A stretch of DNA of 64,000 nucleotides from Azolla caroliniana (lineage: Eukaryota > Plantae > Polypodiophyta): assembly GCA_043228905.1 (NCBI GenBank), contig JBHGNT010000009.1, forward strand, positions 6,572,001 through 6,636,000, given 5' to 3'. Of the stretch, positions 1-64,000 are shown piece by piece; the first letter of the stretch is position 1, and every line of letters begins with the position of its first letter. A model generated the notes under the pieces. That model did no database searches. It was not told where the DNA came from and saw nothing but the letters and a program-made list of their open reading frames with translations. A program made the translations under genes and the position numbers.

Positions 1-273
1 TCATAGTAGTACAGAGAGAGAGAGAAGTGAAGCCATTAGTTTTGCGAAGATACAGAGCTCGAGGTCATTGCCTCTGAGTCTCCTGTTGTACCTCCTTTCT
101 CGTATAGTGATAGTTGGAGTCTATGGGCTCCCGTGGTTTTTCTCTATTAGGGCTTTCCACGTAAACATCTTGCGTGGTCTCTTCTGTGTAAGTGTACGAA
201 CCTCCATTTCTATTTTGTTCTTTCATAAAGTGAATTGAGTCTCGATTGTGGTCAAGCGTTATTCCACACAAAC

Positions 274-285
274 TGGTATCAGAGC
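274..285 (+). promoter_or_regulatory. Primer binding site complementary to initiator tRNA-Met
   Basis: TGGTATCAGAGC begins 3 nt after the LTR end ...CCACACA (270). Confidence 0.93.
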
Positions 286-2999: not shown

Positions 3000-4405
3000 A
3001 GAAACTAGGGCTAGAAAACAGAAATAGTGAGGAAAAGAAAAGTCGACTCATATAGACAAGCTTGTTTTTAGGGGAAAAAGGCAAGCAATGTTAAACCTAT
3101 AAATAAGAGCCAATTCTAGTGAAGAAGGGGGGGAGGGAGAAGGAACGTGGAAGCTCTACTCAATTGGAAAGTGGAAGAAGAAGGATCAACAACATCGAGA
3201 GGCATCATCAATAAAGAAACTCCTTCTATACTACACTCTCTTCTTTCCTCCACCTCTCTTCTCCCATTCATTTATAAACAATCCTTCATCTTCGCATCCA
3301 ACCCATTGTAACATGATTCTTATATTATAAAAGAATCTATTATATTGATATAAACTAATGTTTTCTTTCATCTACCTGTCTTATGTGTAAATCTTTATTG
3401 TGCTTATTTGTTATCGTCATTTGTGCTTTTTTTTTGTGTGTCTTGTGACAAGGGAGCGTTTCGGGCTTGCCCATGCACCTCTCCTTTCACAAAGGCATTC
3501 AAACCTACATGTCTTATATGATATCGTCGTTTGTGCTTATTTGCTTGTGTGTCTTGTGACAAGGGAGCGTTTCAGGCTTTGCCCATGCACCTCTCCTTTC
3601 ACAAAGGCATTCAAACTTACGTGTCTTGCGTGTTAGTGTAAATCTTGCTTGTGTGTTCGTGCGACTTGTGGTAAGGGAGCATTCGGGCTTGCCCATACAC
3701 CTCTCCTTTCACAAATGTGTTCGAAATCGTGTCTCCCATGTGTAAACCTTGCTGTGTGTTCATGCAACTTGTGGCAAGGGAGCGTTCGGGCTTGCCCATG
3801 CACCTCTCCTTTCACAAAGGCGTTCGAAATTGTGTCTCCCATGTGTAAACCTTGCGTGTGTGTTCGTGCAACTTGTGGCAAGGGAGCGTTCGGACTTGCC
3901 CATGCACCTCTCCTTTCACAAAGGCATTCGAAATGGTTTCTCCCGTGTGTAAACCTTGCTTGTGTGTTCGTGCGACTTGTGCCAAGGGAGCGTTCGGGCC
4001 TGCCCATGCACCTCTCCTTTCACAAAGGCGTTCAAAATTGTGTCTCTCGTGTATAAACCTTGCTTGTGTGTTCGCGTGTTTTGTAACAAGGGAGCGTTTG
4101 GGTTTGCCCATGCACCTCTCTTTTCACAAAGGCATTTGAAACTCTGTCTCTCGTGTGTGTAAGTAAGCCTTTTCCTTGTGTGTCCGTGTGTAAGCCTTCC
4201 TCACGTGCCTTCATTCGCCTTGTGACTAGGGGTTGATTCGGGCTTGCCCATGCGCCTCTCCTTTTCACAAACACGTTTGAATACTCGTGCCTTGTTTGTG
4301 TAAGCCTTCCTTGTGTTGTGTGTGTAAGCCCTATTTCCTTCCCGTCCATAACCCTGGCGGTTCCGCCTCACGATCCGCACATAGTGACGGATTTTCACGA
4401 CAACA
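3000..4405 (+). mobile_element. 5'-truncated LTR of an unrelated element inserted in the copia A RT
   Basis: RT homology stops at ...KGFQK (~2997) and resumes at 4406 (QADHCVFVK) with the intervening RT codons missing. The insert has TATAAATA near 3098 and ends ...CACGACAACA. No TSD is visible because of the deletion. Confidence 0.7.
3443..4270 (+). repeat. Tandem array of 8 units, ~104 bp (range 103-139)
   Basis: Core AGGG(A/G)...GGGCTTGCCCATGCACCTCTCCTTTCACAAA recurs at 3451, 3562, 3674, 3777, 3881, 3985, 4089 and 4228. Confidence 0.95.
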
Positions 4406-4776
4406 CAAGCCGATCACTGCGTATTTGTGAAGAACTTCGATGGAGGAGACTTCCAAATAGTCCTTCTATACGTGGATGACATGTTGATCGTCGGACGAGA
4501 CCAAATCAAGATCTGAATGTTGAAGAAGGCCCTAAACCGAATCTTCTCAATGAAAGATTTGGGTTCAGCAAGACAGATTTTGGGGATGTACATCATCTGG
4601 GACCGGTTGAAGAAGTTGTTGTGGTTGTCACAAGAGAAGTATGTGACAAAGGTGCTTCAGAGGTTCAACATGGTAGATGCAAAGCCAGTTGGGTCAACAT
4701 TGTTGGTGAACTGCAAGATGTCTGGAAAACAGAGCCCGAGAACGAAGGCAGAGAAGTCAGAAATGATGGAGATACC

Positions 4777-5417
4777 TGACGGGAACTCAACGCTCCTTAT
4801 GCGCAACGCTCGGCCACAACCGAGCTTAGAATGATACACAGAAAGCGGGAAATGAAACACGACACAAAGAAGAGGAAGATACACAGGAGGTTTACGTGGA
4901 AAACCCCAAACTAAGGGAAAAAACCACGGCAACCCACAGGCTGCAACTATCACTATGTTGGAATGTACAAACAGTGAGTTCACGGAGGCAACGACCTCGT
5001 GCTCACGATCTTCGCCACAGACGGCGGTTACAACAGAGGCAACGACCTCTTTCTCTCTCTCACTCTCTGTACAGTTACACACTCTCTCTTTACTTGCACC
5101 AACAAGAAACGACAACCACTTCAACTAACAGTTTGCCCTAAGTCATATTTATACTAATATGACTTTTCGGCTATTTACAAATATAGCCTCGATGGACTCT
5201 CAGAAACATATTTACGAATATGTCTCTTCATCCGGTTCATACCGGGTCTGCAACATCCGGCTCTCCGTAGCCGGGTATTCCTCATTCGGTTCATACCGGG
5301 TCTGCACCATCCGGCTCTCCGTAGCCGGGTACTCCTCATCCGGTTTCGGCCTCGGCCGAGTTTGTTCATCAGCACTGTTCTTCTCCCTTCCCATCCAGAG
5401 GGACCTGTCTCCCAACA
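4777..5417 (-). mobile_element. Solo LTR (641 bp) related to copia A, with 5-bp TSD ATACC
   Basis: TG...CA ends. ATACC at 4772-4776 and 5418-5422. Splits the RT motif IP|YAS..SLMYAMVCTRP. Shares TATAAATATGACTTAGGGCA and GGTTTTCCACGTAAAC with the element A LTR. Contains an internal 54-bp duplication at ~5225-5345. Confidence 0.93.
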
Positions 5418-6079
5418 ATACCATATGCCTCTACCGTCATAAGCTTGATGTATGCAATGGTGTGCACCCGGCCGAATATTGCTTATGATGTAGGAGTAGT
5501 CAACCGATTCATGAGCAATCCAGGAAGAGAACATTGGAACGCGGTCAAGTGGATACTCCGATACTTGAAAGGCACCTCGAGTATGTGCCTCCGGTTCGGC
5601 TCAGGTAAACCCCAACTGGAAGGCTTTACGGATTCAGATATGTCGGTTGATGCGATACCAGCCGGTCCACTTCCGGATACGTCATGACATATGCAGGGGG
5701 AGTCATATCGTGGCAGTCGAGGCTGCAGAAGTCCGTTGCACTCTCAACAACGGAAGTGGAGTACATGGCAGTTGTGGAAGCCGGTAAGGAAGTAATCTAG
5801 ATGAAGGACTTCATCGGAGAGTTAGGGATTCAACATGAAGAATATCGACTCTACTGCAATAGCCAAAGTGTCATCCACCTTACTAAGAACGCGACCTACC
5901 ATTCCCAAACCAAGCACATCCAGAGAAGACATCACTAGCTCCGAGAGAAGGTAGAAGATCAAGACTTCGCACTGACAACGATCCACACGAAGGAGAACGG
6001 TTGTTAGCCGACAACCTGGACACGTGCCGAAGACATATCGAACTAACGAGAAATCCCATGTTGGAGTGAAGGGGGAGTT

Positions 6080-6598
6080 TGTTGGAAATTCGGTCCCTCC
6101 AGATGGGATCCGGACGAGCCGAAGGAAGGAACCGAACCGGACTGGAAGATATCCGAATGGATCCGGTGTGAACCGGATCTAGGGACATATTTGCAAATAT
6201 GTTTCTGGTGTGCCTGTAAAGGCTATATTTGTAAATAGTCTTAAAGTCATATACGTATAAATATGACTTAGGGCAATCACTTTGATGTGCGAGTGTTGTT
6301 GTTGTTGTTGTTGTGGTTAGTTGTATCATAGTAGTACAGAGAGAGAGAGAGAGAAGTGAAGTCGTCGGTTTTGCGAAGATACATAGCTCGGGTCGTTGCC
6401 TCTGAGTCTCCTGTTGTACCTCATTTCTCGTATAGTGATAGTTGGAGTTTGTGGGCTCCCATGGTTTTTCCCTATTAGGGTTTTCCACGTAAACATCCTA
6501 TGTCATCTCTTCTTTGTAAGAGTACGAACCTCCATTTCTGTTTTGTTCTTTCACAAAGTGAATTGAGTCTCGGTTGTGGCCGAGCACTATTCCGCACA
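6080..6598 (+). repeat. 3' LTR of copia element A (519 bp, TG...CA)
   Basis: Starts TGTTGG just after the PPT GAAGGGGGAG; TATAAATA near 6256; ends CCGCACA; homologous to 1-270. Confidence 0.93.
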
Positions 6599-7943
6599 GA
6601 TGCCCCCAAGGGCGTGAAGCCGATCGGATGAAGGTGGGTGTACAAGATCAAGTACAACACCAACTGCTCCGTCAACTAGTACAAGGCCTAGTTAGTGGCC
6701 AAGGGCTATGCGCATCAACATGACATCAACTATGATGAGACATTCGCGCCGATTGCGAAGATGGCGACCATTTGTTTCTTGCTTACGGTCGTCGCGACAA
6801 AGGGTTGGCATTTGCACCATATGGATGTGAAGAATGCATTCCTACATGGAGAACTTGAGGAACAAGTCTACATGGTGCAACCACCAGGATTTCAGTCTGG
6901 AATGAATACGTCGGCAATATGCCACCTGAAGAAGTCCCTTTACGGATTAAAGCAAGCCCCACGTGCCTGAAACGCAAAGATCACACAACGCTTGCATCGG
7001 ATGGGGTTTGCCACATCCAAGTCAAACTCTTCACTCTTCATCCAGCAAGGTCAGAATGACCCAGTAAGTCTTTTACTTTCTGTTGATGATTTTGTCATCA
7101 CTGGCGCCGACCTAAAGGAAACTGGTCGCGTGAAGTCTCAATTTGCGGCATCATTTGAGATGAAGGACCTGGGGAACCTTCACTACTTCCTTGGGATCGA
7201 TGTGATCCACACCCTCGGCGGCATACTATTGTCACAAAGACATTATGTGTTGAATATGATGCTCAAGTTCGGCATGACAGATTGTCGACCGGTCTCAACA
7301 CCCCTTGATCGGAATCAGAAGCTATGTCTCAACTCCAGACCGGCCTACAATGAGAAACTGTTCCAACAAATTGTTGGAAGCCTAATATATCTTACTATCA
7401 TCCGACCCAACATCAGTTATCCGGTTAGGGTGATAAGTCAATTTATGCAACGACCGACCGTCGAGCACCTATAGTGTGCGCATCGACTACTGAGATATGT
7501 GAGTGGCACTAAGGATTGGGGACTATTGAACCCACACGGTGTAACAAAACGACTAATTGGTTATACTGTTGCCAATTGGGCTGGTGATGCATCAAATCGT
7601 CGGTCAACATCCAACTTTATGTTTTCCCTTGGTAGCACAATCGTTGCGTGGAGCAACAAGAAGTAGTCGACAGTGGCTCTGTTGAGCATTGAGGCTGAGT
7701 ACCTAGGAGCTACCGTCGCAACCTATGAAGGCATTTGGCTTCAACGACTACTACAAGACCTCCGGATTGAAGTACTGACTCTGATCCCGATCTACTGCAA
7801 ATGAGCTGAGATGGGCCTTATGAGCAGACAAGTCGACCGGAAGGGTTGAGGTGTGCTGAACCGGACGAGTCGTGGAAAGCGGGATCGGATAGGACGAGGA
7901 GCATGCGCAAGGTGTGAAGACGCTAGGTGTCATGACTCGTGAG

Positions 7944-7995
<52 letters not shown>

Positions 7996-9465
7996 GACAA
8001 GAAATGGAAATGATATTGTATTATGAGAAAATAAGGTTACAAAGAGTCGGCTAAGGGCTAAAGACTGCTGTTGAACCGAATGAGTTGTGATGAATGAATA
8101 AACACCTATTTATAGGTCCTTATGGAGTATTCTAGAAAGTTCTAGAATATTTTGGATATTTATAATATTTAATATAATCGTGGAATATTCTAGAATACTC
8201 TAAATAACTTGTAATAACTAATAATATATTTATTATAATTATACATCATATATGTTATTATAATGGTTAAATGTCTAACATATAGACCAAGACCTTGTGG
8301 GTTCGAATCCTTGTAAGGTCAAAATGTATGTCTTCATGACATTATCTCCCCTTTTCGACGACGAGTCGGAAGACAAGATTTCGGACTTGGGCTTATGGGG
8401 ATATTTGTTGTGAAATGCAACAACCATTTCAGAGGCATTAGCAAGATTCTCGAGAGGTTCCTATGTTTGATCATTAAGTGTATAACCCAACCAGTCAACC
8501 AAATAATACAGTTTATTGCGAACGATCTTGGAGTCGAGAATGGCAACAACTTCATATTCGGAGCCATTGAAAATTTCGATTGGAGGTGGGGGAGATGTAA
8601 GACGACTTGGAATAGAGCTGGTTGTGTAGGGCTCCAATAGTGAAACATGGAAGACCGAGTGAAGACGCATATGAGGAGGAAGATCAAGGTGAAATGCCAC
8701 ATCATTGATCTTACCAGATATCAAATATGGGCCAAAACGTTGATAATCCTTTGCCTACTCTTTGTAACCTTGTTTTATCATAATACAATCAAATTTCCAC
8801 TTCCTATCTTATCTCTCTATCTATCTCTATCTCTATCTCTATCTCTCTCCTACTAACGAGTCATGACAGTTTGAACCGAATGGAATGTGATGAATGAATA
8901 GACACCTATTTATAGGTCCTTATGGAATATTCTAGAATGTTCTAAAATATTTTAGATATTTAATATAATCGTGGAATTTTCTAGAATGTTCTAGAATACT
9001 CTAAATAGCTTGTAATAACTAATAATATATTTATTATAACTATACATCATATGTTATTATAATGGTTAAAGGTTTAACATATAGACCAAGACGTTGTGGG
9101 TTGGAATCCTTGTAAGGCCAAAATGTATGTCTTCATGATTCTAGGAGGAGCCGAAGGCAAGAATCGACAACGATTGACATTACGATCCGGCCTCAAGTTG
9201 AGCTTGAGGGGGAGTGTTGAGCCGATAAGCTCAACATGAATCGGATTAGCATTAGGAAGGGAGGGAACCAAATCGGTGTGATACCGATAGGCCATTAGAG
9301 GCTTACGATCCTAGTCTAGTACATAGTTTGGGAGTTAGTGTTTGTCACTCACTACGAGCATTGAAGTACTTGTCAATACTTTTGTCAACAAGTCCATTTG
9401 TATAAAAAGTGTTATGATGCACATTTGTATGTACAAAGCTTTTTGAAATAGAGATTTATTGTCTT

Positions 9466-41147: not shown

Positions 41148-48829
<7,682 letters not shown>

Positions 48830-49898
48830 CAAGAGTCCACATCATTGTCCTGGTTGCTAAAGAGCAATTGCAATTAATTGTATTTGCCATACCAAATGTT
48901 CCTTTCCATAGGTAACCTGGAAATTTGTGGATCATTTTGCTTATTCATTCATTTTTTTAGAGCAGTTTTTGCTTCTTGATCTATATTTCGGGATGCAATT
49001 GTTTATATATATACATATACATTCAATCATCATTGTAATCTTTGTGGCTGCCCTATCAAAGGGCTCCATTAGTCCAAATGTAAAGCATCAAGCTTGATGC
49101 AACACTGGTCTTATAAGAGAAAAAACACTTTTTGTTCAGAGGATAAACTTAAAAAAATGCAATTGTAATATATATCTTTGTTTCTGACTTTCTTGAATTA
49201 TTGAGATAGGGCTCTTTTTAATGGAAAAGCTTTATGAAGTAGGTGACCTACGAAACAGAGTGACAACCATTTGGATCATGTCAGAACTAACACTCATGCT
49301 TGATGCTTAATACTTCTTTGTTTCATTTTTCTTATCTTAGTCGGGTGTTTGAAGGCGTGGTAAGTACTAAGTACAAAACTCTTGGCCTATGGCTAGAGCA
49401 TGGAAAGACGTCCACCCATTAACATCTATGCTTTATACAACATGTGTTTTTTCTCTTGGTATAGGGTTGATTGTTATTTTACACAATTGAGGGGTGATGA
49501 GTCCAGCCCCTTACAGAGCAAACCCTTAATATTCCATGATTGTACATCATTATTGTTTTCTCTAATCATTGGGGCTGTTTGCAATTTAGAGTTCAAAACT
49601 ATGGCATTTTTATCATAAGAAAGTTAAATGTGGCAAACACGTATGAATAATGTTGGGTACCAGTTGGTTATAGCAGTCCATGGCTCACAAACAACTAGAC
49701 TAGTCAATCTTGTTAGCCACTAGCTTAAAGCATAAGCTTCTTTCAATCTACAAGATTGTTTTAGTGCACTATTCGATGAGTTGGTGAACAATCATTTTAA
49801 TTAATGGATCCATGGTCAACTAAGATTGCAAAGCATTTCTTATTATTCTAATTAAAATGATTTACAAGTCACATGGTCTAGTTAGTCACATGCGTTCT

Positions 49899-52800
49899 TG
49901 TTAGCCGTTCGGCTACGCGAAGGATAAAGGTCAACAATTTGGAGTCGGTGTCGAAGTTGGACAATATAAAAAGACAGATTTTAAAATGTAATTTTGTCGA
50001 GTATAAACAATATTGTAATTAGGACAATTTTGTATAACTGTAGGTTCTTGCTGAACAAGCAAGTGTATCATCTTGGAAAAGACTCTCAGGCCGCCTATAA
50101 AAAGGGATCGAGAACATTGTATTATTATTGTTCTGTTTTGGTTAATATAGTTTTGGTAGTTAAGAGTAATTGCTATGTCGACTGTTCTGTCTATTTCATT
50201 CTTCTATATTTACCGTGTCCAATGTTTGAACCTATTCTCTACGACACATATTATGTTATACTAACAGTCGATCAGAATCGGAGGTTCTAGTTCTAAGAAA
50301 TTATATTCTGAGTGATCATAGTTTCATATAAAATTCTGAGCTAGTGTTGACACATACCATCTCTCCAACCACAATCATCTTGATAGAACGTTCTCGGTAG
50401 CGAGACGTTTCACCTATTGTGTCTCTCAACTGTCGTCCGAACAACACAATATTTTGGCATGCCCGATTACATCTGCTACGAGCAGAGAACAAGGAGAATG
50501 GATGTCGTGTAGTCGACTCAATACAGATAAGCTTGCAGAAAGTAGAAGACTACGCACGAGATCGGAGAGCCGATGTGCAGAAAGGGATAGTTCCGATAGT
50601 TCGGAGTTTGCCGAACAAATCCAACAAGCAGCTAAAGGGGAATTGAGAGCACTTCCCGATTTAACTACTGATAGTAGTTCGGACGAGGAGCAATCTGACC
50701 AGAGATACTTAGTCGAACTTTGTGAGGAGGATACAATGTCGTATCCATATCCCAAGTATAATGATGAAGCTGACGCAGAGGCGTAGGTGCATGCTTTTCT
50801 TACGACATAAGCTATGATAATTTTCGTGGAGGTATATAAAAAAGATGGCAGGCTAACCATGTGTCGCAGAGATTGTTGGAAGCAAATGCCTCAGCATCAA
50901 ATTAAGATGTGAAGCCAATATAGCAACAACGGTATAGACTAAACCCGAATTACGTGGTAAAAGTAAAAGAGGAAATCGATAAGTTGTTATGGGTCGGCTT
51001 CATCTGACCTGTCAAGAAAGACACTTGGCTGAGCCCAATAGTCGTTGTGCCCAAAGTGAATGGACAAATTAGGGTGCGTGTCGATTATCGAAAGCTGAAT
51101 GTGGCAATTTCCGTTACCTTTCACAGATGAGGTTCTCGATGCGGTAGCCGGGCATGAAATTTAGAGTTTTCTCGATGGGTTCAGTGGATATAATAAGATT
51201 CGAATGCATCTCGATGATCAAGAAAATACGGCTTTTGTCACTGAAGGGGGTGTGTTTGTAGCAGTCGTCATGGTGTTCGGCCTCAAAACAACTCCAACGA
51301 CATTCCAATAGGTAATTATGGAAATATTTTCCGATTATATCCCAACATTTATGAAGGTGTTTCTAGATGACTTTGTTGTGTAAAGGCGGAGAAGCGACCA
51401 TTTTGAACATCTTCAACTCTGTTTGGAAAGATGTCGACAAGGTCGGTTAAGCTTAAATCCAACGATTTGGGGTAACAAGTGGAATGCGACTGGGTCATAT
51501 TGTTAGTCGGGACGGAATTGCCGTAGATCTCGACAAGGTGAAAGCAATAATAGAGGCACCACCGCCAACAAACGCCAAGGCATTGAGCCGATTCTTGGGC
51601 CAAATTAGATGGAATATTCAGATGATCAGATACTTGGCTAATGTAGCAACACCTCTTCATGTGGCAGTGCATAAAACACCTTTCCAATGGTCGACAACCG
51701 AATAGGATGCTTACGATTGTTTGAAGAAAACGATGTCCAAAGTACCAGTTGTGCAACCACCAGATTGGGCAAAAGACTTTCATGTCTTTGTCGATGTCTT
51801 GGATATAGCCATTGGAAGTGCATCGATGCAACTGTCGGAGCCGAACTGGTACAAACAAGTATACTACACCTACGCCGAATGAAACTATTTAACTGTTGAA
51901 TGAAACTATTCGACAACTGAATGGGAAGATCTTGGCAGGATATATATCCGACTATTTAAGTCGACTAGAGTCGGGAGAACCAGGTACGGATGTTAGTGAC
52001 GATTTTCCAGATGCGCAACTCTTCCGAGTCGAAGCTATCAATTCGACGAGGTCAATGAAGAATTAGCCGATTTATGGATCACAGAGATGACGCTATTTCT
52101 CAGTACAAGATTACCACCTGAGGGTATGTCGCTAGATGAACGAAAACGACTTGTTGTTCGGAGTCGGAACTTTTGTCTGTTGAAGGAAACGTTATATCAT
52201 AAAGGAGTTGATGGAGTTTGGCGGCAATGGTTTGACAGTTCGAAAAGGAAGCTATTTTACGTGAGACGCATTGTGGAATTGGTGGTGGGGATTATGTAGG
52301 CGATACAACCGCACTCAGAACACTTGAACTTTTTCAAAAATGGGGCTTAGATTTCGTCGGACCATTTAAGCCAGTAGCAGCAAGAACCGGTAACCACTAT
52401 GTGATAGTCAATATCGATTATTGTATGAAATGGATCGAAGCAAAGGCTCTCAGGGATAATACGATGGTTTCCACATCCAAATTCTTGTACGAATGCATAT
52501 GGTGTAGATTCGGCTGCCCAATTGAACTTGTAAGTGACCAAGGTACTCGTTTTATTAACAAAGTCATCTATGAATTATCAAACAATTATGCAGTCATGCA
52601 TAAAAAGAGTACACCATTTTATCCGCAAGCCAATGGATTAGTAGAATCGACGATTTAGATGATTTTGAAGAAAATCGTCAATGAGAATCGAACTGATTGG
52701 GATCAGAAGCTACATAGTGCGTTATGGGCATACAAAACAACCTACAAGACTATGATCAGGTCAACTCCATTTTGGATGGAATTTGGCTTAGAAGCGGTTA

Positions 52801-55800
52801 TGTCAATTGAATTTCAGATTCCAAGCTTAAGAGTGCAGGTGACAGAGCCCCTGGATGAAGAACAATTAGAACAAGTTTGGAAGGAACAACTTCTTACATG
52901 GGAAGAAAGTCGACTATAGGGGATGACATTGGTATCTAGAGCATAAACAATGGAAAACAAAGGCATTTTGGATCGACACCGACATGGTAAAGAGAAGCTT
53001 TTCGACATCGGTAAGCTTTTCTTAGTCTTTCAGACGAAAATGGGTGCCATGCCAAGGAAACTGTGATTTCGATGGACATGCCCTTATTGGATTGACACAA
53101 CAACATCAAGGGAACATATCAAATCGACACGTTAACTGATGAGGTTTTACCCAAGTGGGTGAATGGGTTCCGACTTAAGCCTTATCAAGGGTCAACACCG
53201 ACTAATCCATTCGAACCAGGAAATGCACAAGGCAGTCGGCCGACTACCCTGACAATGGTCGGTGAACCATGACCAATACAAGGCCATAATTGTAATAAGA
53301 AAAACAAAAACAGAAAACAGAAAACAGAAGAAATAGAATATCAAATCAAATCTTGGCATAATTACTTCTTGGCATTGTCCTTTTCAGATTATATATGGAC
53401 ATGCGTGCTTATGATTTAGTACTTATGATGAGTGGTGGCTATTGAAAAGGGCATTAATAGTAGATTCTATTATTGCAGGTTCTATCTTGAGTTATGGGCC
53501 CCTTCCATAGAAAAACTTTTTCAGTTCCTTTTCCTCACACAGAGAAGCATAGAAAAACCCTAGCATATAGAAACGCACGGGTGAATAGAGAGACGCGCAC
53601 ACAATCACAGGCGAACAAAGCGACAAGTAAAGAAGCGCAGATGAACAACCGACTCTCCAACTCCTCCACTGAACACAACGAGGTTGCTAACACAGAAGAA
53701 GAGCAAGAAACCATGCTGATGCAAGTCTCATAACACTTGCGTCGCTGGATGCAGACCAATGGGTTGGAGGGATACCTTCAAGTCACAGATGCAAAACCTC
53801 ACCCGTAGCCTGAAGAAAGAATTAATCAGATTGACGTCGAAAAAATTACCAACAAACAAGTGCACCTATTCTTAAAGATGAAAAAAGAGGGGTATAATGA
53901 AATGGATGTAGTCAAACCAGAGATCCTAGAGTCTTATTTTGGTGAATACTCTCCGTTAGCCAAAGCGTATAGGACACAAGGAGTTAACGATGTGTTCTTT
54001 CACGATGTGGCCAAATTTTTGTCAGAAGTGGCTTGTGTTAGTCCTTGGTCATATTGCATGCCCAAACAAAGGGATGGCTTCATTATCGCAACATATGAGG
54101 GGGAAAAAATCGACTTGGGGTGGATTACGGGGATCACGCTCCGAGAACAACTCCATGGGGTTTAGATGGGCAAACCCATGAAGTTGATTTTCGCATGGTG
54201 GCTAGCGATATCGTGCCTCGCACCAGTAGCCGACACAGGATGTAAGACCCCAAGAAAAGAGAAGGGGCAGTCATCACAAGCACTACCACAACAATTGGCA
54301 AGAAGAACAACGTTAACACGACTTCAACAAGACAAAACAAAGCTAAAGGAAGCGGACAAACATCTCCAAACGTGCGACTATGCTAGGATCCCTCATGTAC
54401 CAGATCGACAATCATGGGATCAACTACAAGCGACGGAGAAGTTAGCCAAAAGCGCCAACAACAGGGCAGAAGGAGCTGAAGCAAAAGTACAACGAATGAA
54501 AGGCCGCCTTCAAACAGACCAAAGACAATTTGAAGCATTGTTTCAAGCCAAGAAGGACGAAATAACTAACCTTAATCAACAACTACAACAACAGATGATG
54601 GAGACGAAGGACGAATAAGAGAAGATAGACAAGCTCGAGTTATATATTAAAATGCAAGAGGAGCATTATCTGGAGCACACAACCAAGCTCGAAATGGAAC
54701 AAGAGGCATCGACGACGAAATACGATTAGCTAACCGAGAAGTATGAGCAAAAGAGGCTTGCATTATTGGTGGCAGAAACGAAATTGCAGTTCGACCAAGG
54801 CTTGGTAGAAGTTTGACTATCCGAAATGTGGAAGGAACTGGCCAATATGCAGTATAGACTCAACATGGGAGGGGAAAAAGTGTTCCTTATCTTATCTAGG
54901 CACAAGACCAATACACGACAAATGGTCGCCGAATCCTTGGACAACGGTTGGAAGACATGGTCGGCTCAAGCTACCGAATTATAGTTATTAAGTGCCGACC
55001 ATGAGAACAGGGAGAAGCATGGTCAGGGCTTCTTCAAAATGGATGAAGCAACTATTGCCACAATCCAAGAAGAGCTAGCCCATGACATATATGAGCTTTC
55101 AACGCGCCACAAGGAAGAGATCACCAAGCTGATGGAGGAATATGAGGACCAACAGATGGCAATTGTAGTGGAGCTCGATACCTATGAGGACGAACCAACT
55201 TAGGAAGAATCAGGCCAAAAAATACTTGTAAGAAACATCCATCAAGAGGACGAAACTGAGCAGGAGGTTGAGGCGGAATCGATGTTGCGGATGGAGGAGC
55301 TTAACACAGACAACCCACAAAATTTGACTGACGCAAAAGAGAAGGAGGAGCCCAATCTGTTCGACATAATGAACAAGGACGTGAGTGAAATAGATGAAGA
55401 GGACCCGATTGACGACGAACAAATAGTCAACAATGAGGAAGGGGTCCCACGGTGTGCCATGTGTTAGCCTGTCAGCTACCCGAAGGATAAAGGTCGACAA
55501 GTCGAAGTCGGAGTCAGACAATATGCAAAGACATATTTTAAAATGTAATTTTGCCGAGTATAAACAATATAGTAATTAGGACAGTTTTGCATAATTGTAG
55601 GTTCTTGACGAATAGGCAAGTGTATAATCTTGGAAAAGACTCTCAGATCGCCTATAAAAAGGGACGGAGAGCACTGTATTATTATCGTTTTGTTTTGGTT
55701 AATATAGTTTTGGTAGTTAGAGTAATTGTTGTGTCGACTGTTCTGTCTATTTCATTCTTCTATATTTACTATGTCGAATATTCGAACCTATTCTCTACTA

Positions 55801-56002
55801 CACAGATTATGTTATACTAACAGTCGATCCGAATCAAAGGTTCTAGTTCTAAGTAATTATATTCTGAGTGATCATAGTTTCATATAAAATTCTGAGCTAG
55901 TGTCGACACATACCATCTCTCCAACCACAATCATCTTGATAGAACGTTCTCGGTAGCAAGACGTTTGACCTATTGTGTGTGTCGGCTGTCGTTAGAACAA
56001 CA
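49899..56002 (+). mobile_element. Ty3/gypsy non-chromovirus element C, internally deleted and decayed
   Basis: LTRs 49899-50446 and 55462-56002 (TG...CA). TSD GTTCT/ATTCT. PBS-like TGGCATGCCCG near 50455. Degenerate RT (FLDDF), RNaseH and integrase (KWGLDFVGP, SDQGT). Extra-ORF remnant at 53716-55440. Confidence 0.93.
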
Positions 56003-57205
56003 ATTCTAACCACACCTAATTGTAATCTTTGTTTCGATTACTATAAATCACAATATTATTAAGGGTTCTACGTAAACTCGTTCTATTTATTAATCACTCG
56101 GCTTATGTTTAATGATTGTGCTTGCTAATTAACTTGTCTATTATCGAGGATTTAACCTCTTGAATCTCTATTTGTGTTTTGAAGCCATGGCCACCAATGC
56201 CCCCTGTACGGTGCCCATATATGGGCTCAAGGCCTCCTGGAAGACATGTGAACACATATAGAGCGTCCACTAGGCATGATGTTGTCACCAATGATATCTG
56301 GCAAAGAATCCACCCCACAAGAGATCATAATTGGCAACGCCCCCCCACAATGCTAGAAACATTACTCCAAACAATGAACTGTGTCACCTCAAAGAATTAC
56401 ATGTAAGGCATTTGAACCATCATGGCAAATGGCCACCAATGTCTCTCTACTAGTGTTTTGAAGCCATGGCCACCAATGCCTCTGGTATGATGCATCCTTT
56501 TCAACCGCATTTGAACCATGTTCACTCAAAGAATTACATGCAAAGCATTTGAAACATCAAAGCAAATGGCTATAATAGAACGCACAAAAGGATCATGGTA
56601 TGTACAATTAGTGATGAAGTGGTTCAACATTAATGGCCTCAACATTGAGATCTTGCCACACTTTCCATATTGTACATCGTTCACAAATGATGAATGTAAA
56701 AAAGTGTTAATCGGCTAAGTACTAACTACTACCGATACAGAAGAGTGAACGTCGCTACTCAACGTTCTAACAAGGAATTGTGTTTTACGAACGGAATTAT
56801 ACTGTATTAATCGGTAATTACCGTGATCGTTACTTAGTTATAAATTAGGAAGCTTGCACTTAAGATCATAGACAATAAAAGAAACACAGAATTCGTACAA
56901 GATATCCCTAACTTAAACTTATATTACTAAATAGAACGACCTTTCTTACAATGCCTTCGGTTCCCTTTTATAGGTATACCGAAGGTCTTTTCTCATCAAG
57001 AACTATTCCTACTTACTATCAAGATTTACAAAATTATCTAACTAACTTAGTTCTCTTCGTTTACTGCTGAGTCATTGATCCGAACAGTCGATCCGAACCG
57101 ACTCTGTTTTCGACGCTTTCCCACTTGTTCGGTAAAACTGACTGTCCGGGTCCGGGTAACACTTGGCACGTCTGTGGGCCAGGACCTTGTCCAGCGAACC
57201 CACAC

Positions 57206-59659
57206 CTATTCCTGTAGCTCTTCATCCGAATCGTTTAGAATATCAAAAATCGAAGGCTCATCTGGCCTTGGATGTATTCCACCTATATCTTCCTCTTCAT
57301 CTTCATCTGTGTCACAGTCGTCCTTCGGAGCAGGTTGTGATTCGGTTGGCTGCTCTGGTTCACTTCTTCCGGAAGCTTGAATACCAGGAGTCTTGCTGGT
57401 TTTTTCGGCTTCGATTTTATCCAACTGGACGGAAGTGCCTATATCATTTTTGTCGAATTCTTGCATAATACGTTGAATTTCTTCTCTGTAAAATGCCGCA
57501 ATTTCGTCCATATCTTTCATGATATCCTCTTGGATATTGTCAATATCCTTTTGTGCCATTTTAAAAAAACCTACACCTTGTACCTGACGGTTATTTTTGT
57601 CGGCACGCAATAACTGTAATTCCGCCGCTTGTGCTGTCCATAACTTCCATCCTTGCGCAAGGGATTCATCGATCATTTTCTTTGCTAGGTTTCGATGTTT
57701 ACCTATGATGTGCTGCACTTTGTCCCTAGTGATGCTTGCGACGTATTGGGCGGTCTGCAACTCTTTCTGTAAATCCGTAATAGTGGTTCGGTTCTCACTT
57801 TCAGCTCGCATTAGTTTGGATTCGACTACATATATATCCAGCCGTCTTTGTTCCGATATCTTCCGAATTTCGTCCAGTTGTTGTTCGAATGCCGATTTCT
57901 CTTTACTCCATTCCTCCTGCTGTTCCGTCATTCTTCTGTTGACTTCTTCAAGACTCCGCTGTTTTTCTGTCAATTGACTTTCCTGTGACACTATATACCT
58001 TTCGAATTCTTCAATTTGTTCGGTATATGTATGATTGGCCGTCTTAGCTTCTTCTAGATTTTTCTGTAATTCGTTTATTACTTGATTTTTTTCTTCGAGA
58101 GCTTTGTATTGACCATTCTGAATGGTTTCTATTTGCTTTTCTAATTCTGTAGTTCGAAATACCGCATTGTTGGCCCTTGTTGTTTCTGCTTGACGTGCTT
58201 TCTAAGCGTCCTCCAATTTCTGCTGCCATTCTGACTCCGACACCATAAGCCGTGCCTGTGTTTCCCATTTGTTTAGACTTTCCTTTAGTTCTTTATTTTC
58301 TGCCTGTATGTTACAAAACTGATGTTTCAGCACCTCCGCCGATGCTGATACACTTTTGTATCTTTCAGCCATATCACTGGCTGCTTTGCGTGCCGTTTCA
58401 TATTCTTTATGAATTTCGACCAGTGCTTCATGTAATGGTGGCATTTCAATAGCTTCCCCTCTATGCTGTGCACTTCTTTTCCGGCCTATTTTCTCTATCT
58501 CTGCTTTTTCTTGAGGTTCCAACATTCCTCGTAAGGCTTTCTGTATCATTATTCGGTCATTATGTTCTTGAGCCAGCCGTTCTGATACTTCTGTCAGTCT
58601 TTTAGCCAACCATTCAACCAGTTCGTATGAAGTTCCGAACTGTAAAATGGCAGCTAATTCATGTGCTGCTGGTGGGATATCCAAGTACCCATGTGCTTCC
58701 CGAATGGCTACTTTTGAAGATTGTCCTTGGTGAGGTTGTGTCAAAACGCTCTCATTCCCTGGTTTTAGTACTTCTGTTACCATAGGCATATTCGACTTTT
58801 CATTTGTGCGTTGCCTTTTCGGTGCTGATCCCTCACTGTTTTCTGGTTGGAATTGCCGATTAGCCTTTTGTTTAATCCTTGTTCTTTGTCTCATCTTCTC
58901 TGCTTGTTGTCGATTTTCTGTCGGCTGTTGCTTGTTTATCAAATTGTCAACTGTTTCTTGTTCTGTCGCTGGTTGCTTGTTTTCGGAATTCTCTGGTCTT
59001 GGTGGTTCCGACTGAGGCATATTTGTTTGTATATTATCGGCATGTGCCGATTCTTCTTCTATCCATTCTTCATGTACTACCTGTCGGTGTCTTCGTGGTG
59101 CTTGTACTATCGGTGGTCTTCTTGACTGAACAGGAGTTTCCGATTCTTGAATCGGAAACAATACTGATAACCAACGACCAAAAATTTGCTTCATCGGTTT
59201 TCCTGTTTTTACCCCTTGTAGCTGCTCTCTCAGAGCTTCCCCCGACAATAGTGGCCAGTTGAAATCCTCTTTTTCGTATGCGGCTATGATAAATCCAGCC
59301 CTTTTTTTCGGCATACAATAAAAACGAGGACTGACAAATCCCACCTCTAATAGAAATCTAGCCACTTCATGAAAAAACTCATCCCGACCTCCATAAGTCT
59401 GATATGCTTTTGCCGAGGGTGAGTATTCCCCGAAATACGATTGGAGTGCTTCTGATGAAGGTTTTTTAACTGCCTCAAAGCCTCCTCTTGGCATTTGTAA
59501 TGCATTTCGTATTTTCTTTGTGGTGATTTTGGTGATGTCCATTTGTTGTACCAATTCTTCCGCCTGCGGATGAGGTTCCGCTTCTGCTACTTTGATGAAA
59601 CCTTGTAGGTTTCTCTCATGAAGCCACAATCGCAGTTCTTCAGATACAGGAATCGACAT
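57206..59659 (-). pseudogene. Extra (env-position) ORF of element D, ~817 codons, one in-frame stop at 58202; function unknown
   Basis: ORFs 58202-59866 and 57206-57991 share a frame. Globular N-terminal domain, long coiled-coil-like region and acidic tail. Homologous to element C 53716-55440. Confidence 0.85.
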
Positions 59660-60066
59660 GACTTCTGTATTTCCTTGTTCTGAATCACTTGTCGATGACA
59701 GTTGCAGATCTGCACAGTTTCTGTAGCGATGAAAATCAGAAAAGCAGAGTTTGGGCGAACTAGGGCACGAAGGAGGCTCAGACTGTTTCGATATCTGCAC
59801 TCGTTTCTGTTGTTTTGACGACACAGATGATATAGAAATATGCTTTAAAGATATTAACTTATGCATGATGACTTAAAGAATAGTAATTGCTATTAATGTA
59901 GGAATTAATTAGTATTCACTCTACGTGTAGTGGTTGTACTCCTTACTAATAATCATGCAATTCCTCTTTCTATTTATAGTCGATTCATACTGTTATGGCA
60001 AGATTGTATTTCTGCATTTGACAAGAACTATTGAGTGAGTTAGTTAGTTTTTTTTTTTTTTTTTTT

Positions 60067-63000
60067 TTACTCTTCCGTTTGAATAAACGGATTTACCGGC
60101 ATATCTCCCAAATACGGTTTAAACCGAAATCCATTTACCCATTTCGGTAAAACCTCTCCGGTTAATGATCCCTGTTGGTACGTACCATTTTTACTATTAA
60201 TTATCCATACTGGACCTGTCCATCTATACCGAAGTTTCCCAGGCATAAGTCCCATTCTCGTTTGGAATACTAATACCGGTTTCCCAATTTCGAATTGCTC
60301 TTCCGATTTCCTTCGATGTCGATTTACGAATGCCTTGATTTGTCTCTGCTTGTGTTCTAGTGCTGACATTGATTGAATCCATTCTTCTTCTAATACTAAT
60401 AAAGCCTCCTTGCGTATCTGCTCCGATTCTATTTCATTTAACTTATTCGTTGCTTGGATACGAAGTGTCGGAATTTGAAATTCGATCGGCATAACGGCTT
60501 CGAGTCCGAATGCCATTCGGAAAGATGTTGATTTAATGGATGTTTTGTACGAAGTACGATATGCCCATAATGCACTATTTAACTTTTGATCCCAATCAGT
60601 ACGATTTTCATTTACTATCTTCTTTAAAATTGTTTGAATTGTTTTATTTGTCGATTCTGCCAATCCATTAGCTTGGGGATAGTAAGGCGTACTTTTCTTA
60701 TGAACTACGGCATAGTAATTGGTTAATTCGTTAATTAACTTGTTAATAAAATGAGTGCCTTGATCGCTTACCAATTCTATTGGGCAACCGAATCGACACC
60801 ATATATTCTCATACAGGAATTTTGCTGTGGATGCTGCTGTATTGTCCCTGAGAGCTTTTGCTTCAACCCATTTTGTGCAATAGTCAGTCGCAATTATGAT
60901 ATATCGATTACCGGTTCTTGCAGCTGCTGGTTTGAATGGGCCAACAAAATCTAAGCCCCATTTCTGAAATGGCTCAAGAGGTAAAACCGGTTGAAAAGGC
61001 ATTCGATCCTTTTCGGTTGGTTGCCCCATTCTTTGACACAAATCACATTTCTTACAGTATTCGTTAGCATCTTTCATCACCGTTGGCCACCATAACCCGC
61101 TATTCCATATTTTTCTGGCTGTTGCTTCTCCTGCGTAATGACCGCCAGCAATTCCACAATGTGACTCTGTTAATATGGCTGATTTTTCAAATTTTCGTAC
61201 TGCCCTTCGCCATATTCCATCCGCTCCTTTATGATACAACATGTCATTAAATAAACAAAAATTCCGACTTCGTACTGCAATTCTTTTTCTTTCATCTGTC
61301 GACATGTGTTCGGCCGGAATTCCTGTTGATAGAAATATCGTCATTTCGGAAATCCATTCATCCTCTTTTTCCTCATTCACTTCATGTGCTTTTACTGCCT
61401 CAACCCGAAATAATTGAGTATCTGGAAAATCATCTTTAACCCCAACCGCTTCTTCTCCAGACTCAAGCCGACTGAGATAGTCAGCAATCGCGTGTTATGC
61501 TCCTGGTCGATGTATAATGTCGAATTCAAACTCTTGAAGCAATAACGTCCATCGGGCTAACTTGCCTGTCAATTCTTGTTTGGAAACTAGATACAGTAAA
61601 GCCGAATGATCCACATGAAATGTAAATTTCTTACCCAAAAGGTAATGTCGAAATTTGTTCACACTATATATCATTCCCAAAGCTTCTCTTTCGGTTGTTG
61701 AATAGTTTCTTTCGGCCGACGAAAGTTTCATACTGGCATAGTATACCGGCCTATACCAGTTTGGTTCGGATAATTGCATTAAAGCACTGCCTATGGCAAT
61801 GTCCGACGCATCGACGAAAACATGAAATGGTTTGTTCCAGTCCGGTGGTTGAACTACCGGAACCTTCGTCGGCATCTTCTTAAGACATTCGTACGCATCT
61901 TGTTCTATACTTGTCCATATAAAAGGAACTTTGTGTACTGTTGTGTGTAACGGAATAGCAATGTCTACTAGATATCTCATCATTCTACTATGCCACCGAA
62001 TTTGACCCAAAAATCTACTTAAAGCTTTAGCATTTGTTGGTGGTGTTGCCTCAATAATTGCTTTAACTTTGTCTGGGTCCACTGCAATCCCTTCTTGACT
62101 GACAATATGCCCAAGTAATGTACCACTCATTACTCCGAATGCGCATTTGGCTGGATTTAAACTAAGACGCCCTTTTCGACATTTTTCTAAACATAGCCGT
62201 AAATGCTCAAAATGATCAGCTTTCCGACTATATACCGCAAAATCATCTAAAAACACCTGCATGAAAGCTGGAATATATTCCCCGAATATTTCCTGTATTA
62301 CCCGCTGAAATGTAGCTGGAGCTGTTTTTAAACCGAACATCATGACTACTGCCACAAAGACACCCCATTCTGTGACGAAAGCTGTCTTTTCCTGATCTTC
62401 GGGATTCATCCGTACTTGGTTGTACCCACTGAACCCATCCAAGAAACTATAAATTTCATGTCCCGCTACTGCATCTAATATCCCATCTGTGAATGGCAAC
62501 GGAAACGCATCCGTAATTGTCGCTGCATTCAATTTTCTGTAATCCACACATACGCGAATTTTCCCATTCTTTTTCGGGACTACTACTATCGAACTCAGCC
62601 ATGTTGATTTTTTGACGGGTCGAATAAATCCTACTTTTAAGAGTTTATCGATTTCTTCTTTTACTTTGATAGCATAATTCGGATTCAACCTGTACCTGCG
62701 TTGTTGTACTGGCTTTGCATCTTTATGCAAATTGATTTGATGTTGACAAAAAGCGGGATCCAAACCTTTCATATCGTCAAACGACCATGCAAAAACATCT
62801 TTATATTGTAATAATAATGTTGTTAATGTCCGTTTGTCATTTACTGTCAAATCTCTAGCAATCAAGACTGTTTTTCTTTCAGCATCCTCTACTCCTGCCA
62901 AATCGATCTCCTCTAATGCTGAGGCTTGCACTCTCTGAGATACCTTCATTTCCTTATCTGTAGCTTCTTGTTGCATTCGTATTTCTTTCATTGTTTGCTC

Positions 63001-64000
63001 ATCGATTGGCACTTCTTCGTGTGAGTCTACATATGGTGTTAATGCTTGCAAAATATCTACCTCAAATAGAGGGATGATTTTTTGATTATCATCAAAATAC
63101 TGACTTTCTTCTTCCTCGTCCAATCCTTCCATCATATTAACTGCTTCTGCATGTACAGGTAAACTCTGTTTGCTTGTTGTCACTTTGTTGTGCGTCGGAA
63201 TCCTGACCTTATTTTTTCCTTTCCTAAATGTTAGCACATTTTGTTTCCAATTTTGTTTAATATTAGCTGTCTTTAACCATGGTCTCCCTAATAACAAGGG
63301 GTATGCTCCCTGTGTTTCTAACTGCAAAATTACTGCCGAAATCTGAAAACTGTGCCCCCCGATTATTACATCCAGTTCTCGAAGCAAACCAATCGGTCGT
63401 ACCGTACTTGTATCTGCCATTCGTAACCAAAACGGACATGCTTCCCATTCCGTGATTCCCAGTTTTTCACATGTAGTTTTGTTAATCACATTAACACCCG
63501 AGCCTCCATCTATAATCACATTTCCGATTTCTTGCCCGTAAAGTATTACCTTAATCGACGGATTCTGTTCATCCATGATCGAAGGGTTATTACTTGGCTG
63601 ATTGTAGTGTACTGCTATTTGTTCGGAACCTTTATATGCAATTAATGCTGCCACTTTTTCTGTAAACCTTGGTACTAACTTAAGTAAGCCCGTAAGTGGC
63701 AATGACACTTGGCAATCAGCCAACAGTTTCCAAGTTTCTTCCTGTTCCTTATTCCCCAATGACTGTTGTACAGTGATGTCCTGGTCAATGTTATTGTCTT
63801 GTAACATTCGATTCACATTACTTTGATTTGCTTCATCCACCCATTCTTTTGCCGCCTTCCGAACTTCTTCCTGAATTTCCCACTCTGATTGTTTGCTTTT
63901 GCTGCGTGTCGTTACTTGCTGAACTTCCGGTATTACCATATTAACTGCTGGACCCTTTCCTTTAACCGGACATTGATTAGCATAATGGCCTAGTTGTCGA
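60067..64000 (-). pseudogene. gypsy gag-pol (end of CCHC knuckle, protease, RT, RNaseH, integrase) with one in-frame stop at 61495
   Basis: IIDGGSGVN, VCVDYRKLN, FLDGFSGYNQ, FLDDF, VDASD, NYSTTEREAL, H..H..CDLC, WGLDFVGP, SDQGTHF, RWTGP. ORFs 61495-63939 and 60067-61380 are in the same frame. Confidence 0.93.

Follow-up and report, generated by a model that had tools for sequence, protein, structure and literature searches.

How does an LTR retrotransposon start its plus strand when no polypurine tract (PPT) adjoins its 3′ long terminal repeat (LTR)? The PPT is treated as near-universal in LTR retroelements, and the minus-strand primer is known to vary (whole transfer RNA (tRNA), half tRNA or self-primer). 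Ty3, for example, primes its plus strand from an RNase H-resistant purine tract (PMC5371799). The question is raised by two Ty3/gypsy elements, C and D, in a 64,000-nucleotide (nt) stretch of Azolla caroliniana DNA (contig JBHGNT010000009.1, positions 6,572,001 to 6,636,000; hereafter the window), which is plant DNA with several retrotransposons. Where a PPT would be expected, both elements carry a sequence resembling the 3′ half of a tRNA-Arg. We lean towards the view that a high-copy plant LTR lineage has dropped the PPT and primes both strands with host tRNA-Arg, via a duplicated, inverted and extended primer-binding site (PBS) whose hairpin lies opposite the methylated base m1A58.

The internal region of D, on the minus strand, ends in CCCACAGACGTGCCA-AG-TGTTA at 57161, and the corresponding junction of C reads GAGGAAGGGG-TCCCACGGTGTGCCA-TG-TGTTAG. 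A preliminary description of this DNA had pointed out that the two elements share CCCAC-N3,4-GTGCCA, a 2-nt gap and the TG of the LTR. Indeed, this pattern, chosen post hoc, occurs twice in the window against 0.04 expected, and none of 100 shuffles reaches two occurrences. The sequence of C was as described. The conserved unit, however, measures 40 nt rather than 14; it is intact in D (57164–57203), where it ends exactly 2 nt before the 3′ LTR, and its hairpin part has been deleted from C.

Related loci were fetched by protein alone, not by the motif, using as bait the C-terminal part of D's last extra open reading frame (ORF) aligned with 13 homologues. This yielded 71 loci (L numbers) with 24–80% identity in the best segment, from 12 assemblies that probably belong to one campaign. 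The 3′ arm of the site, with at most three mismatches, is present in 37 of the 71 loci, which is 37 of the 43 that are long enough; 28 end too soon, among them L013 and L027, which stop within the element and match in part, and six are long enough and lack the arm. By eye, two of these six jump to the interior of an LTR, three enter unrelated DNA and one ends inside a longer ORF, and none of them shows an LTR start with a PPT. TG stands exactly 2 nt past the arm in 35 of the 37 loci, and homology to the LTRs of C or D confirms an LTR downstream of the arm in most loci. A loose form of the pattern has four matches in the 123 kb that precede the ORF ends. Columns of the arm are 89–100% conserved and those upstream of −45 at most 69%. 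The same edge is seen in contig pieces from four sequencing runs with four organism labels: among the 32 pieces listed (727 further pieces exist), 19 end at 57202–57204, and the sequence of those pieces past this edge is unrelated.

Without its hairpin, the pattern is matched exactly at 14 places in prokaryote genomes, each of them the 3′ end of a tRNA-Arg gene (bacterial, not host tRNAs). In standard tRNA numbering, the two arms correspond to positions 49–57 and to positions 61–76 without base 66, with the insert at 58–60. To judge from these matches, the site reproduces, in sense orientation, the 3′ half of tRNA-Arg (T-arm, acceptor strand and CCA), and a hairpin splits it. L022 reads GTGGGTTCG, CCAGGCAAGGCCCTGG, CCCACGGGCGTGCCA, and the middle part in L056 is AAGTGCAAAGCACTTT. 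A complete cloverleaf is absent, since ARAGORN reports no tRNA gene in the window and Rfam gives no tRNA match in six loci at E up to 5.

No PPT adjoins the 3′ LTR in this lineage. Among 35 distinct junctions, the 15 nt before the gap have a purine fraction of 0.47, and purine runs of length seven or above never end in the 20 nt next to the LTR. Such runs do occur at about −55 to −38 in 16 junctions; 11 have none anywhere in the last 90 nt, including D and the high-coverage contigs L001–L003, L035 and L060. Positions −62 to −46, around the stop of the extra ORF, are purine-rich on average and poorly conserved. In contrast, ordinary purine- or G-rich tracts are present at the LTR of element B and at a foreign gypsy LTR in L060.

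Covariation was assessed on an alignment (A3) of 39 rows, 37 of them distinct, with identical rows counted once; a second fuzzy match in L048, with four mismatches and away from the LTR, was left out. In the inner hairpin, five of the six pairs show two-sided changes, amounting to 30 cells against 10.0 in shuffled alignments, a count reached in none of 500 shuffles; the number of pairs with such changes is by itself not above shuffles (158 of 500). Cell counts are inflated by relatedness, so a tree built from upstream DNA was also checked: for one pair, the switches fall in two distinct clades, and the overall count is at least five independent events. RNAalifold, unprompted, recovers just the 4-bp core of the hairpin. 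The outer GTGGG/CCCAC stem shows no two-sided change at any of its five pairs, and the C-like clade has kept CCCAC while its stem partner drifted. From this comparison, the insert is a selected hairpin, and the arms hold tRNA identity and not a stem of their own. A constant partner outside the element, with which both arms would pair, would account for arms without compensatory change and for the retained CCCAC.

Folded as single strands, RNA or DNA, the sites are mostly no better than shuffles. Cofolding was carried out with the 3′ 30-mer of a bacterial tRNA-Arg(TCT) (from L078), which serves throughout as proxy for the host tRNA, with RNA energies for the RNA/DNA hybrid and no modifications. 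The predicted energies for the tRNA and the minus-strand site range from −21.6 to −33.8 kcal/mol in 11 intact copies, with −13.7 for C and −36.5 for the PBS of L011. The fold predicted for the intact copies and for the PBS of L011 is a three-way junction in which the last ~28 bases of the tRNA pair with both arms and the hairpin loops out opposite 58–60.

A related arrangement is found at the other end of the elements. The PBS of C, TGGCATGCCCG, begins at 50455, 8 nt past the 5′ LTR (the 5′ LTR of D lies outside the window). Five contigs (L001, L006, L009, L011 and L028), which probably collapse both LTRs, cross the LTR into a PBS, each past an 11-nt spacer. With the bacterial proxy, the PBS pairs over 11–17 bp with tRNA-Arg in C, L001, L006, L011 and L028. 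L001, L006 and L028 share the layout of C, namely a PBS of 11–13 nt, a short hairpin and GAAC. In the 5′ PBS of L011, a GTGC/GCAC hairpin stands between TGGCACGCCCGGTGGGA and TGAACCCAC; this arrangement mirrors the entire 3′ element, and a covariance model that was not trained on it finds it on the opposite strand (E ~2e-4). The hairpin at L011:1613-1653 looks like the L056-type 3′ hairpin (AAAGTGC...GCAC) in reverse complement, which suggests an origin of the 3′ element by inverted copying of an extended PBS. The hairpin and GAAC of C are likely a worn, putatively homologous form of the extended PBS that is whole in L011. The spacer in the five contigs starts with CAG and has T's at its end. 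The PBS stands 11 nt (8 in C) past the LTR versus 2 nt at the other end, which would leave integrase a long overhang. Near the 3′ end of L009, the PBS leaves the tRNA-Arg match after 6 nt, by decay or because another primer is used.

The two ends of an element, called roughly complementary in the preliminary description of C, are complementary over 9–11 nt. The covariation between PBS and 3′ motif that it proposed to look for is not seen in five pairs, four of which come from the contigs that probably collapse both LTRs. In L001 (D-family, coverage 18), an A of the 3′ arm faces a C of the PBS, giving an A–C mismatch between the element's own ends; the PBS also retains the base matching tRNA position 66, which is present in none of 38 3′ arms. 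In cofolding with the proxy, the tRNA binds the PBS better than the element's own 3′ end does in five of five cases. In sequence, both ends follow the tRNA, not each other.

The preliminary description also treated C as an independent second case. C and D are indeed strongly diverged: their pol pieces, which align in identical domain order, are 58–79% identical in amino acids, and their LTRs have a single common stretch of 46 nt with 72% identity. The tree nevertheless indicates related families, in which pol, extra ORFs and the tRNA-like element are common by descent, and the independence of C is lost. What remains of the proposed function in reverse transcription is a motif conserved far beyond chance, at the place of the plus-strand primer end, for which a role in reverse transcription is most likely; the independence of the two cases is not supported, and neither is covariation between PBS and motif.

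Element C itself is an old, broken copy, a decayed witness of the site that it shares with D by descent. Its 3′ LTR boundary is fixed by the alignment of its two LTRs (89%) and by a 5-bp target-site duplication (TSD) with one mismatch (GTTCT/ATTCT), so that its purine run does not lie beside the LTR, as first described. C clusters with L039, L042, L046, L048, L049 and L052 in the tree from upstream DNA (long branch, moderate support). These nearest relatives read, for example, GAGTAAAAGGGGTTCG-hairpin-GTCCCAC (L042); C is ~36–40 nt shorter here, and GAGGAAGGGG abuts TCCCAC. Relative to them, C has lost the hairpin by a deletion with ambiguous breakpoints. The purine run is most likely made up of the last codon and stop region of the extra ORF and the GGGG of the 5′ tRNA arm, not a PPT, and it lies 17 nt from the LTR because the deletion brought the stop region close. 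The covariance model scores the remaining arm of C at 20 bits (E ~0.016), C being outside the training set. No gag is seen between PBS and reverse transcriptase (RT) of C, and its extra ORF is 48% identical to the first extra ORF of D over residues 56–244 of the latter. Summed contig depth in run X1, a rough guide only, is 188 at the junction of C, 66 in its flank, 800–5000 in its LTR and ~13,000 at the junction of D; the short junction of C looks rare and the family of D abundant. Copy C by itself adds little, and D and the related loci carry the weight.

The reading that we favour, with a little more belief than doubt, is that the lineage has no PPT, that an inverted, extended tRNA-Arg primer site stands by the 3′ LTR, and that a second host tRNA-Arg primes the plus strand there. 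RNase H would clear the RNA from the minus-strand DNA at the site, and host tRNA-Arg would anneal to this DNA with the help of a chaperone. The CCA of the annealed tRNA would sit 2 nt from the LTR, at the place of a plus-strand primer end. RT would extend the tRNA through the 2-nt gap and then the LTR, RNase H would then remove the tRNA, and integrase would trim the 2 nt. The hairpin would be located where m1A58 interrupts pairing. When RT copies a tRNA primer, it stops short of m1A58 (PMC11251516); the match reaches positions 49–57, past this base, and the site is thus not a simple by-product of primer copying. Every step beyond the sequence and covariation evidence is inferred.

Several points weigh against this reading. 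The tRNA-Arg used for cofolding is a bacterial stand-in for that of the host, and the energies are partly circular, since the arms resemble the tRNA by definition, and the structure tested was drawn from the tested sequences and is therefore favoured over slid controls. The 12 assemblies have neighbouring accession numbers and probably represent one campaign on related hosts. The 5′ arm is partly degenerate in the C-like clade and in the PBSs of the D-family, so that not all members share the full junction. Once the minus strand has been made, the element's own RNA is already paired at the site over 40 bp and has the same CCA end; judged by sequence alone, it may be the primer. A strand test by wobble direction is weak (G>A 15 versus C>T 10 in the arm, p = 0.05) and not significant once the shared changes of relatives are merged; post-insertion decay dominates, and the test does not separate a tRNA primer from an own-RNA primer.

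The main rival, which we doubt, is that the element's own RNA primes the plus strand, the tRNA-like stretch acting as a non-purine PPT that the hairpin shields from RNase H and that is cut after CCA as at a tRNA–DNA junction. The 2-nt geometry would be identical, a second tRNA would be unnecessary and the standard pathway would be kept; moreover, the plus-strand RNA can form a long hairpin in some copies (z = −2.6 in L056) and D retains, by eye, all four acidic residues of RNase H. Yet plus-strand folding does not exceed shuffles in five of six cases, the T-loop is interrupted by the insert, and an upstream partner for the acceptor-like stem is found in only one of 38 copies. Such a primer would also leave unexplained the tRNA identity that the unpaired TTCG and both arms keep without compensatory change, and the mirror-image site at the PBS of L011, where the partner is a tRNA. 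The complementarity of the ends, with predicted energies of −10.5 to −21.3 kcal/mol, raises another alternative, which we consider unlikely: the 3′ element would pair with the 5′ PBS in genomic RNA, either circularising it for strand transfer, like CYC5/CYC3 of Ty1, or self-priming the minus strand after a cut behind CCA. Ty1 does require 5′–3′ pairing beside its PBS (PMC3592414). Here, however, the lack of compensatory change, the mismatch in L001, the base 66 missing from all 3′ arms and the stronger predicted binding of the proxy tRNA argue against it, and such pairing would provide no plus-strand primer and would not account for the 2-nt gap.

We regard it as very improbable that the site has no function and persists by descent as a remnant of an inverted PBS duplication. 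All carriers do belong to one lineage, and C, whose copy of the site is damaged, either integrated in that state or persisted in it. Against this stand the conservation of 89–100% per column, over a range where the bait protein is 24–80% identical and the LTRs barely align, the compensatory changes of the hairpin and the lack of any other visible plus-strand primer. Hardly any credence can be given to the purine-rich stretch at the extra-ORF stop as the real, offset PPT, with another role for the tRNA-like stretch. In Sireviruses, a PPT octamer does stand 10 bp before the LTR (PMC2829016); positions −62 to −46 are enriched in purines on average, and 16 of the 35 distinct junctions have the run at about −55 to −38 described above. 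Nevertheless, D and the high-coverage contigs named above have no such run, the columns concerned are at most 69% conserved, ~45 extra bases would stay on the end of the complementary DNA, and the distance in C results from the deletion.

Where does the lineage belong? The RT–RNase H–integrase order, the direct TG...CA LTRs of C with their TSD and a PBS matching a tRNA 3′ end are those of Ty3/gypsy elements. Pfam matches in the pol of D are RVT_1, RT_RNaseH, Integrase_H2C2 and rve, with one stop between RNase H and integrase. Pfam gives no chromodomain in D, whose ORF stops shortly past the integrase C-terminal region; this separates it from Chromovirus, including Tcn1. Like Athila, Tat/Ogre/Retand, Phygy and Selgy as treated in the parts of PMC6317226 covered here, the lineage combines traits such as no chromodomain, a non-Met tRNA primer, an extra ORF after pol and a 5-bp TSD; tRNA-Arg is the main primer of Ogre and TatIII (PMC6317226). 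The second, archaeal-type RNase H of OTA/Tat is not seen in the visible pol of D, whose gag end is outside the window. OTA/Athila elements have a PBS for tRNA-Asp, tRNA-Asn or tRNA-Ala and, when present, an antisense extra 3′ ORF (Additional file 5 of PMC6317226), whereas here the primer is tRNA-Arg and the extra ORF is sense. Phygy and Selgy have a tRNA-Trp or tRNA-Ala PBS, a 4-bp TSD and no extra ORF, unlike the tRNA-Arg PBS, 5-bp TSD and extra ORF found here. By these feature lists, the lineage lacks listed features of Tat, Athila, Phygy and Selgy. Tf1/Tcn1-type self-priming uses a PBS complementary to the 5′ end of the transcript itself; here tRNA-Arg already accounts for the PBS.

The extra ORFs of D match no Pfam family above cut-off, and an extra-ORF homologue leads to unnamed coiled-coil clusters only in the Atlas. 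The two ORFs lie in a single frame with one stop between them, and homologue P0121 spans that stop; likely they are one long coiled-coil ORF that is broken in D. The named relatives of the integrase come from one fern and two liverworts; together with the fern match of the neighbouring JmjN/C5HC2 gene, they point to a non-seed plant as the probable host. In the viral collection, the integrase, its alignment and the extra-ORF alignment found no relatives, and two DNA patterns had no matches.

Compared with the canonical Ty3/gypsy and retroviral cycle, the lineage has the same TG...CA LTRs, tRNA PBS after the 5′ LTR, RT–RNase H–integrase order and plus-strand primer site by the 3′ LTR. Where Ty3 has its PPT, this lineage has a sense-oriented 3′ half of tRNA-Arg split by a hairpin, and the purine content there is 47%. 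Ty3 also has a bipartite PBS, whose 3′ part lies inside U3 and is complementary to the tRNA on RNA (PMC5371799). Both systems have tRNA-related sequence at both element ends; here, however, the segment is tRNA-sense, upstream of the LTR and in place of the PPT, which Ty3 keeps. Extended tRNA contacts for the minus strand are known from boxes 0/1 of the Ty1 PBS (PMC3592414) and from the HIV-1 primer activation signal, which contacts the 5′ T-arm strand (PMC11251516). The 5′ PBS of L011 is predicted by cofolding to show the same layout, with a second short T-arm-pairing segment past a looped-out structure. Those contacts act on genomic RNA and for the minus strand only, whereas the inverted 3′ copy described here could pair with the tRNA on minus-strand DNA only. 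Finally, the inverted repeat at the PPT and 3′ LTR of Sireviruses (PMC2829016) is likewise structured, conserved and exactly positioned where the internal region meets the 3′ LTR, and it has a 2-nt attachment site; these elements differ in belonging to the Copia superfamily, in keeping the PPT and in having arms that are not tRNA-derived.

In the parts of PMC6317226 covered here, Neumann et al. distinguish three primer types, all for the minus strand, and mention no lineage without a PPT. No description of a tRNA site replacing the PPT was found in the literature searched, which misses most subscription papers, and, as far as covered here, PMC11963269, PMC3601003 and PMC7472051 add nothing on this point. 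If the preferred reading is true, the plus-strand primer is swappable too, and a tRNA can prime on DNA in a natural cycle; the inverted duplication of an extended PBS hints at the route of such a swap. The lineage would then offer a natural system for studying the demands that RT and RNase H make on a plus-strand primer, and both of its priming steps would be sensitive to the supply of tRNA and to tRNA fragments. Such elements would be under-called by annotation tools whose criteria or scores include a PPT.

Table 1. Positions in the window of the parts of elements C and D and of two other features.
Feature	Position	Strand	Remarks
C, left TSD, GTTCT	49894..49898	+	right copy ATTCT at 56003-56007
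C, 5′ LTR, TGTTAG...AACA	49899..50446	+	89% identity with 3′ LTR
C, spacer from LTR to PBS, 8 nt	50447..50454	+	11 nt in five related contigs
C, minus-strand PBS	50455..50465	+	complementary to tRNA-Arg 3′ end (bacterial proxy), one G-U wobble
C, short hairpin TCTGC/GCAGA, then GAAC, 3′ of PBS	50472..50490	+	equal layout in L001, L006, L028
C, broken pol (RT, RNase H, integrase pieces)	50906..53212	+	many stops, frameshifts
C, broken extra ORF region	53653..55440	+	homologous to that of D
C, purine run GAGGAAGGGG	55435..55444	+	most likely extra-ORF stop region and GGGG of 5′ tRNA arm, by comparison with L042, L049, L048
C, remaining 3′ arm of tRNA-Arg-like element, TCCCACGGTGTGCCA	55445..55459	+	CCA-terminated; one base shorter than in relatives
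C, 2-nt gap TG between CCA and LTR	55460..55461	+	
C, 3′ LTR, begins TGTTAG	55462..56002	+	
D, 3′ LTR, TGTTA...TAACA	56705..57161	-	
D, 2-nt gap AG	57162..57163	-	
D, 3′ arm of the element	57164..57178	-	matches tRNA-Arg positions 61-65 and 67-76, two G-to-A differences
D, 16-nt hairpin (4 bp + 2 bp, bulged T, 3-nt loop)	57179..57194	-	compensatory changes across families
D, 5′ arm GTGGGTTCG	57195..57203	-	matches tRNA-Arg positions 49-57; upstream edge of conserved island
D, extra ORF region, two in-frame ORFs, coiled-coil-like	57206..59872	-	
D, pol (RT, RNase H, integrase; Ty3/gypsy order)	60067..63999	-	cut by window end
Element B, short non-coding LTR element	8071-9138	-	ordinary purine tract; on a brief look, bases past 5′ LTR unlike a tRNA PBS
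JmjN/C5HC2 (JMJ16/18-like) demethylase gene	41800-47136	+	best named match from a fern

Some loci are composite. In L060:1-3744 (contig coverage 40), a gypsy pol 25–29% identical to the D group lies immediately before the extra ORF, together with a 1.3-kb LTR and a G-rich tract of its own; the arrangement may be a nested insertion, a composite family or a collapsed assembly. A swap of pol in L060, where RNase H and integrase are 25–27% identical to those of D, was considered and rejected, because pol and the extra ORF are separated by the foreign LTR (L060 2428-3744) and the G-rich tract that belongs to it; by this layout the locus is a nested or collapsed second element. In L024 (~1440–1470), the last 8 nt of the arm directly adjoin an LTR end, and the 2-nt gap and the LTR of another family come next; in L023:1939-1992 the junction of a second family lies past a first LTR. 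Both are probably nested insertions; a leftover primer at an LTR–LTR junction is a less likely reading.

Elsewhere in the window, positions 1–7500 hold one or more Copia-type elements, apparently nested, with an internal array of ~104–111-bp repeats at 3400–4330. A PBS, TGGTATCAGAGC, follows the LTR at ~270 and is presumably of the initiator-Met type. The long exon of the JmjN/C5HC2 gene contains ~34 copies of a coding repeat based on 42 bp (45005–46950).

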